64,000 bases of DNA from Escherichia coli (GTDB lineage Bacteria > Pseudomonadota > Gammaproteobacteria > Enterobacterales > Enterobacteriaceae), in NCBI RefSeq assembly GCF_044324875.1, contig NZ_CP172185.1, one strand, 5' to 3'. Within the stretch, counting starts at the first letter, position 1. Each line of letters opens with the position of its first letter. The translations under genes were made by a program, and so were the position numbers. Below, piece by piece: positions 17,979-30,810 of this stretch. The notes beneath the pieces were generated by a model. It ran no database searches. It was given only the letters and a program-made list of their open reading frames with translations, and had not been told where the DNA came from.

Positions 17979-19103
17979 TCAGTTTGTTAACGGACAAATC
18001 ATGACCCGTTCATCAATGTTTGCGGGTAGCTCGCCTGGCGTGGGAACGCGTTCACCCCGCTGAGCAGCCTGTGCCAGTGTGCGCAGCAACAATACGCTGG
18101 CATGAGATATAGCCAGTTCCCGGGTTTCTGCACGGGTTTCAAGGTCGAAATCGTGCAGTGTCACGACAAACAGCCCGTTTCTGCACCCGACAGTTGCAGG
18201 GTAGGGAACAAAATAAGGTGAAATTTTGCTGGTCTGTTTACGCCTTGCATCGAGTTTGCTGACCAGCTGATATGCCCGGAGATGCGTGTACCGTTTTAAC
18301 ATGTTCAGGGAGCGGTGGCCTGAAATAGCGGCAACTTCAATGACATTCAATGTACCAAGTTCGAAAAATCGGCTGATGGCTTCATGACGGAGATCGTGAA
18401 AATGCAGATTTTCTATTTTCAGGTCCAGAAGTGCGGTACGCCAGGCGCTTTTGAAACCGGATGAGGTGTAACTGAACACATTGCCGTTTATCTGTTGTGG
18501 CAGAATTTGCAGGTAGTTGCGAGCTTTCCGGGAGAGTGGGACATCGCGTGGTAAACCATTTTTCGTTTCAGGAAGATGCGCCACTCCGTGCTGCAAATCG
18601 AGGTGTTCCCAGCGTAATGTGAGAATTTCCCCCTGTCGCATTGCTGTTTCCAGGGCCAGATGGAAGATAACGTAGAGCTGCTGATTTTTATCTCTGAAAT
18701 AGCGGGAGAGTCGGCGTTCTTCGCCAGAAGTCAGGCGACGCTCTCGCCCATTACTGATTTTGGGTTTTCGGACCAGTTCAACAGGATTCATACGGCATGT
18801 CCCCCATTCCACACGGGCGATATTGAATAATGATGATAAAAGAGCAAGTTCAAGACGGACGGTGTTTCCGGTGATTTGACGCCCAGTTCGTGGGTTAATT
18901 TGAGCCAAACGCTGATCCCGGTAACTGGCGATATCAACGGTCGTGATTTCATCCATATAGCGATCGGCCACAGGGTGACGTTTAATCACATTGACGCGAT
19001 AAACCTCCTGCAGATGCCCTTTTTTATGGACGGAAACGGTTTTCAGGTATTTGTCCAGCGCCCGGTTGAGAGTCATTTTGCGAATTTTGATTTTTCGAAA
19101 CAT
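17979..19103 (-). CDS. rci: shufflon-specific tyrosine recombinase Rci
   Basis: Strong similarity to R64 Rci as I remember it ([30 protein letters not shown]...[13 protein letters not shown]...[14 protein letters not shown]); ATG at 19103 inside ORF track 17979..19361; a 19-bp shufflon repeat lies ~60 bp upstream. Confidence 0.85.
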
Positions 19104-19165
19104 ATCGGCCTTCCACGATAAAAACGGGGAAGGTAGGAATAGTGAAACGGAAATGCAATATCGCC

Positions 19166-19184
19166 GTGCCAATCCGGTTTGTGG
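19166..19184 (+). repeat. shufflon 19-bp repeat GTGCCAATCCGGTTTGTGG
   Basis: Read from sequence. Confidence 0.8.
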
Positions 19185-19391
19185 CTTGGAGGCAATAAAG
19201 TGAACTATTCTGCCTGTAAATGGTATGAAGCGACCTCCGCACATTTTATCGGTGGCAGAAGCGGAGGCTCTATTTATTACAAGCCGATTCAGTGCCCTGC
19301 CGGGTACGTCATGACAGGTACAAGAATGTACGGCATCGGAGATGGTGTTGATGAAGAGCACGTCGATGCTTACTGTTGCCCTTTTGGTTAG
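19185..19391 (+). other. silent PilV C-terminal segment C
   Basis: In frame with repeat 19166..19184; ORF track 19179..19391. Confidence 0.6.
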
Positions 19392-19427
19392 ATTCCGAGG
19401 GCCGGTATTTAATTTTCTCCCGTTGGC

Positions 19428-19673
19428 TTATTTCTCACAGATTGCTATAGCCTGGAAACAACTCAGGGAGCCAGAGCCAGTAGCAATCCACCGATTGTTT
19501 TTGTAATCAGGGTAACTACCATCTGGTGAGTTGTATCCGTTATGGACCCACTGGGATAACCTGTAGCCGCCGGAGACCAACTTACTCCCCGATGGGCATA
19601 CCGCGTAAGACGATGTCTGAAAGCACCCATTCCCGCCGGATACTGTGAAACGCTCTTTTTTGTCACTGTTTTG
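19428..19673 (-). other. silent PilV C-terminal segment B
   Basis: In frame with repeat 19674..19692 on the minus strand; ORF track 19428..19679. Confidence 0.6.
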
Positions 19674-19692
19674 CCACACACCGGATTGGCAC
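19674..19692 (-). repeat. shufflon 19-bp repeat (inverted)
   Basis: CCACACACCGGATTGGCAC on the plus strand. Confidence 0.8.
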
Positions 19693-29184: not shown

Positions 29185-29373
29185 GCAGAAATCCTTGTGT
29201 GAAACGTGAAAACAGTGAGCAGAGCAGGGAGGGCAGAAGCGCTTCGGGACTGAAGTCTGCGCGTGATGGCGATATATCCGCGGGACATGACCGCGGCCGG
29301 ATATGCAGACTTCAGTCCACAGGCTCCTCACACTGTGCGGGACAGCGAAGGTTAACGGTGCAGTGATGTCCCG

Positions 29374-29811
29374 CTAGTTGAAATAAACAAATGCGCTGTC
29401 AGGAATGACGGACGGCACGCTGATACCGGTGTCCTGACCTGTGGTGTTCAGCAGTCGCCGCCCCTTCACCCGGCCTGCCAGCGCGGTTTTGTGGGTGATG
29501 TCTGCCAGCGCACCTGCAAGCCCAGGGCGGTCATCCTGCCAGACAAAGACCCGCTGTCCGGCGATGATATGGCGGGTACCGTATACCGGGCGGAAACCCG
29601 TGGCGGTGACGGGGAGCGTGCCACCCCCCGTGCGCTCAGCCGGATGGGTGTACAGCCGGTCGTTAATGCCGTTCATGAGGCGGACCATCTCCCACGCACG
29701 TTCACGCATCTCCGCCTGCTCGCTGTACACGGTGACCCGGTGGGTACTGCTGTTGTGAAACCAGGTCAGCGCCACGGTCAGGGCCATGACCAGGGAGAGC
29801 GACCAGCCCAT
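29374..29811 (-). CDS. pilM: PilM
   Basis: ATG 29811 (MGWSLSLVMAL) directly after the pilL stop; position in operon. Confidence 0.55.
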   Translation of the reverse strand: MGWSLSLVMALTVALTWFHNSSTHRVTVYSEQAEMRERAWEMVRLMNGINDRLYTHPAERTGGGTLPVTATGFRPVYGTRHIIAGQRVFVWQDDRPGLAGALADITHKTALAGRVKGRRLLNTTGQDTGISVPSVIPDSAFVYFN

Positions 29812-29813
29812 GG

Positions 29814-30539
29814 TCAGTCTCCCGGTCTGTCGCTGACGTGCACCACACACTGCGTGCTGTTGATGGCTGCATACAGCGGCGTCTGTGCGTCCTGATAGAG
29901 ACGGAAGAGTTCACTGAGCGCGTGGCGGAACTCGCCGGTGAAATGCAGCGGCGCATCGATGCTGTAATTGAGTCTGGGGTTCTGCCAGGCCAGCTGCCAG
30001 GTGCCACCGGCCTGACAGGGAACGGCGGCCACCCACTGCTCAAGACCGGCACGCAGCAGGGTTCCGCGGGCAAGAGTCCAGGTGGTCCGTGCATGCGCCG
30101 GTTGCGGCATGTTTGCTGATTTTTCCGCGGTTTTTTCCTGCAGACTGGTGGTGCCCGGGGTGGCCTGAGACGGACTGAACAGGGTGTTCCGCTCAATACG
30201 TACATGCTTCTTCTCCGTGTCGGTGATGGCGCGGAGCTGATATTTTTTCAGCATGCGTTCCGTAACGTAATTCCACTGGTCATTTCCCTTCCATGACACC
30301 GTGCGGGGCGGCCTGACATCCGGTGCAATGTCAAATGTCCATCCCGGCGGTATCAGTTGCTGCATGGCTTTTTTCAGTGATAACCCTTTACCGTCCCGGG
30401 GAATAAATTTCAGTGCTCCCGGAGCGCTGCTGACCGTGGACGATGAGGGTGCACTGACCTGAGAAGGTGACGGTGCAGCAAAAAGTGGAACAGAAAATGC
30501 CAGCAGCGGCACAATAAGAAGTGGTTTCAGTGGTGTCAT
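29814..30539 (-). CDS. pilL: PilL, lipoprotein, first gene of the pil operon
   Basis: Signal peptide MTPLKPLLIVPLLAFSVPLFA; position at the head of the pil cluster. Confidence 0.6.
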   Translation of the reverse strand: MTPLKPLLIVPLLAFSVPLFAAPSPSQVSAPSSSTVSSAPGALKFIPRDGKGLSLKKAMQQLIPPGWTFDIAPDVRPPRTVSWKGNDQWNYVTERMLKKYQLRAITDTEKKHVRIERNTLFSPSQATPGTTSLQEKTAEKSANMPQPAHARTTWTLARGTLLRAGLEQWVAAVPCQAGGTWQLAWQNPRLNYSIDAPLHFTGEFRHALSELFRLYQDAQTPLYAAINSTQCVVHVSDRPGD

Positions 30540-30591
30540 ATTATGGTCCTGTATCGCACATTTTTTGTGTTTCCTGAGCCTGTATCCGGTT

Positions 30592-30810
30592 TTATTCCGG
30601 CTGAACTCTGCTGCATGAGAATGCGGTGACGTTCACTTTCACACTGAACGATTTACCGGCCTCTTTTTCTTTTAAAAACAGCCTGACGCATTCAGGCTCA
30701 GTCATCGGTGTGTTCTGAAAACGCACCCAGGATACCGGTGCACCACCAGGCTTCAGGATGGTGGCTTCAATCCGGTATTTATGCGGTGTGGTGTCTGTTG
30801 TTGCTGTCAT
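30592..30810 (-). CDS. small hypothetical protein (72 aa) upstream of pilL
   Basis: ORF track only. Confidence 0.3.
   Translation of the reverse strand: MTATTDTTPHKYRIEATILKPGGAPVSWVRFQNTPMTEPECVRLFLKEKEAGKSFSVKVNVTAFSCSRVQPE

Follow-up and report, generated by a model that had tools for sequence, protein, structure and literature searches.

Integrative and conjugative elements (ICEs) that occupy the tRNA-Phe genes pheV and pheU of Escherichia coli conjugate and mobilise chromosomal DNA (PMC13127887), and the pilus of one such element, ICEEc2, is said to help form mating pairs and to act in transfer (Roche 2010, cited in PMC4458695). In PAPI-1 of Pseudomonas aeruginosa, transfer requires every one of the 10 pil genes and the recipient's lipopolysaccharide (LPS) is bound by PilV2, and, in the account that the same source gives of plasmid R64, PilV variants recognise specific LPS core structures (PMC5297154). 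We describe here a locus of this kind in a 64,000-nucleotide stretch of the E. coli contig NZ_CP172185.1 (the window, below), where a probably conjugative type IVb thin-pilus operon with a shufflon lies at pheV. A preliminary description of this DNA had named it an R64/SPI-7-like type IVb pilus operon, running from pilL to rci and borne on a pheV island, and the protein families, the synteny and the neighbours of the tRNA gene all agree with that assignment. We regard it as probable that an ICE of the ICEEc2/SPI-7/PAGI-2 family has its mating-pilus module in this region, with mating-pair formation for ICE transfer as its likely function; expression, a part in conjugation and LPS binding would be expected in this strain by analogy with the studied relatives.

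In the open reading frame (ORF) listing, the operon appears as an unbroken co-directional series from 30810, the start of an ORF of the DUF1187 family, down to 17979, the stop of rci. These two ends are those given in the preliminary description, and the pil genes, with their strand now corrected, lie on the minus strand. The order of transcription is DUF1187-pilL-M-N-O-P-Q-R-S-T-U-V, a two-segment shufflon and rci, after which traE and traF prolong the co-directional run to 15641. All genes of the operon are intact, and each product fits its expected family. The genes had been reported as eleven and co-directional; the shared direction holds, and the count rises to 13 ORFs in the span (12 named pil or rci, and the DUF1187 ORF). 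Comparisons were made with R64 (NC_005014), with the IncK2/Z plasmid pTB-nb2 (NZ_CP033633.1), with a second, diverged pheV ICE, that of NCTC9112 (TraI 48% and integrase 46% identical), and with the SPI-7 locus of S. Typhi, reached through the PilS of PDB 1q5f. Collinear tblastn matches in all four bear out the order pilL-M-N-O-P-Q-R-S-T-U-V-rci, and the collinearity with R64 and S. Typhi SPI-7 upholds the earlier statement that this is the gene order of the IncI1 thin-pilus and SPI-7 clusters. Tad/Flp and type IVa pili, the alternatives raised beforehand, were rejected: their families do not fit, the matches obtained exclude both, and the synteny is kept.

The first ORF of the run (30592-30810, 72 amino acids; this and all following genes of the series are on the minus strand) lies 52 bp upstream of pilL and scores 91.3 bits against NF007283, just below the cut-off of 92; the same ORF carries the DUF1187 label in the annotations of GF43 and NCTC9112. 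Its identification as a homologue of R64 pilI was rejected, as it has no similarity to R64 PilI. PilL (29814-30539, 241 amino acids) carries a TcpQ domain (PF10671, E = 1.7e-13) at its C-terminus and, when its N-terminus is set beside those of the R64 and pTB-nb2 proteins, shows an ordinary signal peptide and no lipobox cysteine. PilM follows (29374-29850, 158 amino acids; PF07419, E = 7.8e-12), and then the lipoprotein secretin PilN (27559-29184, 541 amino acids), which scores 417 bits on TIGR02520 (cut-off 287.65) and has LLSGC as its lipobox. The lipoprotein of this operon is PilN, not PilL, so that the product series given in the preliminary description (lipoprotein, secretin, ATPase, platform protein, major prepilin, transglycosylase-like protein, prepilin peptidase, adhesin) stands for its families and fails in its first member. 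In the GF43 ICE a separate protein annotated as a PilL N-terminal domain (locus 21906-22484) heads the type IV secretion system (T4SS) module; since the PilL of the pil operon corresponds to the TcpQ-like C-terminal part only and lacks a lipobox, this ICE family seems to have distributed the two halves of plasmid PilL over different modules.

Downstream lie pilO, coding for a PilO2-type pilin accessory protein (26249-27547; PF06864 over its full length, E = 6.1e-36), pilP (25798-26259; 103 bits on TIGR03021, whose cut-off is 34.65), the gene for the assembly ATPase PilQ (24268-25788, 506 amino acids; GspE/PilB-family matches and the Walker A motif GPTGSGKST) and that for the inner-membrane platform protein PilR (23166-24266; GspF-family match). 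The major type IVb prepilin PilS (22580-23116; PF08805, E = 3.2e-15) has a 22-residue leader and the cleavage motif KG|LTLLE, with glycine at -1 and glutamate at +5, and distantly matches the S. Typhi PilS structure 1q5f (E = 6.5e-5). PilT (22045-22521) is not a retraction ATPase and matches IagB-like lytic transglycosylases (E = 5.8e-35). The series continues with the prepilin peptidase PilU (21382-22032; PF01478, Peptidase_A24, E = 4.6e-11), the minor pilin and tip adhesin PilV (20096-21385), which has the prepilin motif KG|FILLE, contains two stretches that match PF04917 (Shufflon_N), at E = 2.6e-51 and 1e-32, and found no relative among solved structures in a structure search, and the shufflon-specific tyrosine recombinase Rci (17979-19103, 374 amino acids; tyrosine-recombinase matches).

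The shufflon (19166-20447) comprises two invertible segments, 19166-19692 (527 bp) and 19701-20447 (747 bp), bounded by four exact 19-bp sfx sites of the R64 type at 19166 (+), 19674-19692 (-), 19701 (+) and 20429-20447 (-), for which 0.59 matches would be expected by chance even with 3 mismatches allowed; the 19-bp core, GTGCCAATCCGGT, is common to the window and R64. Read inward from each site in the pilV frame, the sequence opens into an exon starting CQSG(V/L)W, giving four in-frame alternative C-termini of PilV of 74, 87, 129 and 116 amino acids that are 97-99% identical in amino acids to the exons of pTB-nb2. The constant part of pilV (21385-20448) is fused in the window to the 116-residue exon (20447-20096), in GF43 to the 87-residue exon and in NCTC9112 to the 129-residue exon, and the ICE of ECCNB12-2 is without the 527-bp segment. 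The shufflon arrangement differs between otherwise near-identical ICEs, as expected for an active Rci, and because these states vary between copies, Rci at least appears to be active.

Beyond rci, in the position that traE-like genes occupy in I-complex plasmids, stands a traE-like gene (16945-17766, minus strand) whose product is 99.6% identical in amino acids to the pTB-nb2 protein and 54% to R64 TraE, followed by a gene for a TraF-like outer-membrane protein (15641-16843, minus strand; 92% to pTB-nb2 TraF, 74% to R64 TraF) with a weak PorV-like beta-barrel match. Both genes are intact after rci in two diverged ICE lineages without an I-type T4SS. This retention, together with a TraE-like ORF after rci in SPI-7, hints that traE is tied to the pilus and shufflon module rather than to the T4SS.

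The surroundings of the operon are those of an ICE. A tRNA-Phe gene (35715-35790, minus strand; ARAGORN and Rfam) marks the integration site and the right end of the element; it is the only tRNA that ARAGORN finds in the window, the Rfam scan returned nothing besides it, and it can be identified as pheV because yqgA and speC adjoin it. Between the pil operon and this tRNA gene lie three plus-strand genes: a UvrD-like helicase (31337-32845), divergent from the pil operon; a TraI relaxase of the PFGI-1/MobH class (32775-34367; TIGR03760, 193 bits against a cut-off of 161.4), the start annotated in GF43 corresponding to about 32838; and an XerC/D-like tyrosine integrase (34398-35510) adjoining the tRNA gene, helicase and integrase both being identified by family match and an annotated relative. 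The chromosome of E. coli GF43 matches the window region at 99.7% identity, and there the island extends about 45 kb further to the left of the part equivalent to the window and carries a GI-type T4SS with TIGR037xx proteins, TraD, TraG, topoisomerase III, members of the STY4528 and STY4534 families, a SPI-7-type DnaB, ParA and ParB. The T4SS and the ParA/DnaB/ParB module of GF43 lie 20-65 kb to the left of the pil operon, and the island in the window runs past the window start. Just before parA, GF43 has a degenerate copy of the pheV 3'-end (25 nucleotides with 2 mismatches), which gives an ICE of about 78 kb; no second copy of the pheV 3'-end is present within the window. The preliminary description had asked whether conjugation genes lie past the window start; the mating-pore genes would, as they do in GF43, and the relaxase does not, being found within the window and to the right of the operon. 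At least 80% of the region is present in 30 of 5426 complete genomes, mostly from poultry isolates, and in the approximately 30 genomes with 80% or more of the cluster the operon genes are intact.

Several further features of the island were observed. The divergent intergenic region between the pil operon and the helicase-traI genes (30811-31336, 526 bp) contains several short inverted repeats, for example at 30848-30889 with perfect arms of 11 nucleotides, and is a candidate regulatory region or origin of transfer (oriT). Among the cargo is a type III restriction-modification system (7269-12223; GC content 34-37%; Res 971 amino acids, Mod 678 amino acids), just upstream of which the annotated relative has genes for the ArdA antirestriction protein, an LPD29 protein and a DUF1281 protein. 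Adjoining traF is the C-terminal fragment of an autotransporter gene (15161-15475), and at the same spot the diverged NCTC9112 ICE has a full-length gene for the serine-protease autotransporter SigA (sigA; locus 1-1491); the junction of traF with the autotransporter gene therefore seems ancestral, with later truncation of the cargo gene in the present lineage.

From the family assignments and the studied relatives, the following mechanism may be proposed. PilU would cleave both prepilins, the major pilin PilS and the minor pilin and tip adhesin PilV, and the PilQ ATPase and the PilR platform would polymerise the pilins. The lipoprotein secretin PilN would let the fibre out, assisted by the accessory proteins PilL, PilM, PilO and PilP, and PilT would open the peptidoglycan. 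The resulting thin, flexible pilus would bind surface structures of the recipient (LPS in the relatives studied) and so steady donor-recipient pairs, whereupon the separate GI-type T4SS would transfer DNA nicked by the MobH-type TraI. By inverting the two segments between the four sfx sites, Rci would place one of four C-termini on PilV, a switch that may alter which recipients are recognised.

The pilus could instead be mainly a colonisation or virulence adhesin, acting in host attachment, self-aggregation or biofilm formation, as has been claimed for SPI-7 and for the Yersinia element YAPI. As summarised in two later papers, an operon of the same family was reported to aid entry of S. Typhi into intestinal cells, and deletion of the YAPI pil genes to lower virulence (PMC3401170, PMC4458695); the carriers of the present ICE are, moreover, mostly poultry-associated strains or avian pathogenic E. 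coli (APEC). However, the ICEEc2 work, as it is presented in PMC4458695, re-assigned the role of the pilus to mating-pair formation, and no difference in Caco-2 invasion was seen between Salmonella isolates with the operon and those lacking it (PMC3401170). The operon is also bound, physically and evolutionarily, to conjugative elements (ICEs and I-complex plasmids), and it has a shufflon, whose known role is the choice of recipient. We therefore consider it unlikely that adhesion to a host is the main role of the pilus, and note that the two roles are not mutually exclusive.

The comparison with pTB-nb2 and NCTC9112, supplemented by a collection of 72,556 plasmids, presents the operon as a recombinational mosaic of ICE-specific and plasmid-shared segments. 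From traF to rci (15641-19397) the window is 93-94% identical to pTB-nb2, and over the shufflon and the start of pilV (19654-20674) about 98%. Identity to the plasmid then falls to 73% in the constant part of pilV and in pilU (20701-22035), where NCTC9112 is 98% identical and the top plasmid match reaches 84.5%, and rises again to 98.6%, with long runs of 100%, from pilT to the 3' part of pilQ (22036-25477; 96.4% to NCTC9112). At the 5' part of pilQ, pilP and pilO (25478-27550) the plasmid drops to 65% and NCTC9112 reaches 99.2%, and no plasmid of the collection exceeds 81% over about 700 nucleotides. From about 27601 onward, pilN is close to neither (about 67% to pTB-nb2, about 71% to NCTC9112), and the same is true of pilM and pilL (to 30539), with 29-39% amino acid identity to pTB-nb2 and about 43% to NCTC9112. 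Followed base by base, the likeness to pTB-nb2 breaks off sharply within pilQ, at base 25478; this gene is chimeric, with 1210 nucleotides of plasmid-like sequence at its 3' end and 311 ICE-specific nucleotides at its 5' end (junction 25477/25478); a second sharp breakpoint lies at about 27600, at the pilO/pilN border.

This mosaic structure with its sharp breakpoints accounts for the compositional heterogeneity of the cluster, which the preliminary description had rightly called strong, with pilL to pilN GC-rich: GC content is 0.64 in pilN (0.81 at third codon positions, GC3), 0.63 in pilM (GC3 0.75) and 0.58 in pilL, versus 0.43 in pilS and pilT. GC-rich pilL, pilM and pilN are specific to this ICE lineage; homologues of pilN and pilM elsewhere have 0.44-0.58, and the T4SS core of the ICE, at 0.57-0.62, is near the pilN and pilM values. 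A word-index search with PilL returned only near-identical homologues and no donor for the GC-rich pilL-pilN segment. The plasmid-shared allele from the 3' part of pilQ to pilT is found at an identity of at least 95% in 128 plasmids. The chicken isolate ECCNB12-2 carries both a pheV ICE and pTB-nb2, with near-identical copies of this segment, and this co-residence provides an opportunity for recombination. The junctions relative to the plasmid are the same in both ICE lineages (the window type and NCTC9112), so that the basic chimera either predates their divergence or has passed between them. For the block rci-traE-traF, a move from plasmid to ICE may be proposed, because traE and traF open the long I-type tra operon on plasmids, the rest of which is absent here; plasmid homology stops at the traF stop codon.

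One could go further and suppose that the operon is a chimera that works and that recurrent gene conversion with IncK2/Z plasmids in the same cell keeps it homogenised, with traE and traF as accessory genes of the thin pilus or shufflon rather than parts of a T4SS. We put this forward tentatively, as a possibility that is rather less probable than its opposite. If true, pilin, ATPase, platform, shufflon exons and Rci would be common to ICE and plasmid, with a shared recipient range as a consequence, and each might be able to make use of the other's pili.

The mosaic could also be read as a dead one, in which incompatible halves have been joined and the genes are intact merely because the event is recent. 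PilQ is indeed a hybrid, and PilL to PilP are only 29-66% identical in amino acids to the plasmid versions that co-evolved with the C-terminal part of PilQ, PilR, PilS and PilT. Yet the same two plasmid-relative junctions recur in another lineage of ICEs, with TraI and integrase only 46-48% identical, no gene is broken in either lineage or in about 30 genomes, and copies differ in their shufflon state, implying an active Rci, all of which makes a non-functional operon improbable. The remaining idea, that the cluster is a remnant of a chromosomally integrated IncI-complex plasmid, could appeal to some 7.3 kb of 15641-25477 that are 93-100% identical to IncK2/Z plasmids (the constant part of pilU-pilV reaching about 73%) and to the presence of traE and traF from the plasmid tra region in the shared stretch, but we rejected it as highly improbable: no other I-type T4SS genes (traH-traY), no nik genes (nikAB), no replication genes and no pilI, pilJ or pilK were found in the window, pilL-pilP and pilU-pilV have no close counterpart among the 72,556 plasmids (at best 81-84% over short stretches), the MobH relaxase, helicase and integrase at pheV flank the cluster, and in GF43 it belongs to a 78-kb SPI-7-type ICE with a pheV repeat. 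With 40 R64 proteins from this region as tblastn queries, only TraE, TraF, Rci and nine Pil proteins (not PilU or PilP) matched the island, and the sole match to R64 TraJ (about 54.1-54.8 kb) fell off the island. The gene concerned (54044-54976) is a chromosomal PilT/TraJ-like ATPase gene, probably yggR, and unrelated to the island.

Some observations weigh against a mating-pilus module that works as proposed. The window does not take in the T4SS part of the ICE, which was seen in GF43. The PilL-PilP lineage diverges by 35-70% in amino acids from the partners of the plasmid-type PilQ C-terminal part, PilR, PilS and PilT, and the compatibility assumed between the two sets is supported solely by the junction shared by two diverged ICE lineages. 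The scan for promoters and terminators found no more sites, or fewer, than in shuffled sequence, and its sole strong 'terminator' is the inverted sfx pair. An IS21-family element (1804-4222; an IstA-like transposase of 548 amino acids and an IstB helper ATPase) lies in the ICE cargo and is missing from islands that are 99.7-99.9% identical (GF43, APEC E19035 and others), which points to some insertion activity in the ICE. Finally, tblastn found no match for R64 PilI, PilJ or PilK in the window, and pilK is reportedly required in R64; in pTB-nb2, too, no gene bears the annotation pilJ or pilK, so that these two genes are not universal in the family.

The operon as such is already known, being annotated in about 30 RefSeq genomes, and its biology is that of the textbook. 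What is added here is modest, a fine-scale map of a mosaic in which the pilus modules of ICEs and I-complex plasmids exchange segments by homologous recombination, with breakpoints within pilQ and at the pilO/pilN border. The map suggests that plasmids and ICEs of poultry E. coli share hardware for the recognition of recipients. The pheV/pheU ICEs of this family move virulence and resistance genes, and they can also bring about an Hfr-like passage of large pieces of chromosome from one E. coli lineage to another (PMC13127887); mating pilus and shufflon probably set who can receive them.

Among known systems, the I-complex IncK2/Z plasmids are the nearest relatives, with up to 99-100% nucleotide identity over long stretches, and the likeness to R64 and SPI-7 is one of family and synteny. 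The protein comparison with these two that had been suggested beforehand did confirm homology, at the level of the family (24-60% amino acid identity, Rci 73-75%). In pTB-nb2 the gene order from pilL to traF is alike, the 3' part of pilQ with pilR, pilS and pilT is 98.6% identical in nucleotides (PilR 98.6% in amino acids), and the shufflon, rci, traE and traF are 93-98% identical (Rci 94% in amino acids). In contrast, PilL to PilP share only 29-66% of their amino acids, and PilU and the constant part of PilV about 77%. The plasmid PilL is a lipoprotein of 356 amino acids (LLSGC), versus 241 amino acids without a lipobox here, and pTB-nb2 has pilI and two extra ORFs between pilQ and pilP, its operon being followed by a complete I-type T4SS that is absent here.

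R64 has the same order of pilL-V, shufflon, rci, traE and traF, the same sfx core, a PilN-family lipoprotein secretin and type IVb prepilins; its proteins are 24-60% identical in amino acids (Rci 75%, TraF 74%), with PilU and PilP undetected by tblastn. Its PilL, unlike that of the ICE, is a lipoprotein (LLSGC), it has pilI, pilJ and pilK, none of which occurs here, and its shufflon has four segments and seven sfx sites, versus the two invertible segments described above. R64 is a plasmid with an I-type T4SS, whereas the present operon is chromosomal, ICE-borne and probably paired with a GI-type T4SS.

The SPI-7 of S. Typhi, an ICE-derived island with the SPI-7-type backbone, shares the order pilL-V and rci and a shufflon with sfx sites. 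Its proteins are 26-52% identical in amino acids (Rci 73%; the PilS match is weak), and there the operon comes after ssb and before the T4SS genes, whereas here it adjoins the relaxase and integrase module. A single sfx pair was found there versus four sites here, and no traF; downstream of rci stands the TraE-like ORF (24% identity, E = 3e-13; CP029915.1 locus 15360-16235). In the same record no gene is called at the position of pilN (locus 3640-5320), where tblastn matches lie in two frames, which suggests that pilN is frameshifted or the record misassembled. A PilN-based scan of genome contigs gave 26 loci in other genera with similar synteny (PilN 31-52% identical), none with helicase, TraI and integrase as neighbours and none a closer relative.

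PAPI-1, compared by description, has an R64-related type IVb pilus of a PAGI-2/pKLC102-family ICE that is needed for transfer, with 10 genes (pilL2, N2, O2, P2, Q2, R2, S2, T2, V2 and M2) and no pilU, shufflon or rci (PMC5297154), and it sits at tRNA-Lys (PMC5297154; PMC6761156). Close to the present element, likewise by description, stand ICEEc2 of APEC strain BEN374 and the related E. coli pheV/pheU ICEs of the pKLC102/PAGI-2/SPI-7 family: they integrate at tRNA-Phe, have helicase, TraI and integrase by the att site, use a type IV pilus operon in their transfer and have E. coli from poultry as hosts. ICEEc2 is said to reside at pheU, the copy here at pheV, and the cargo of the present element (type III restriction-modification system, ArdA, IS21) may differ from that of ICEEc2, which was compared by description only. 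With the ICEs of the ICEEc2 group, the near-identical ICE of GF43 shares the GI-type T4SS, the SPI-7-type DnaB, ParA and ParB.

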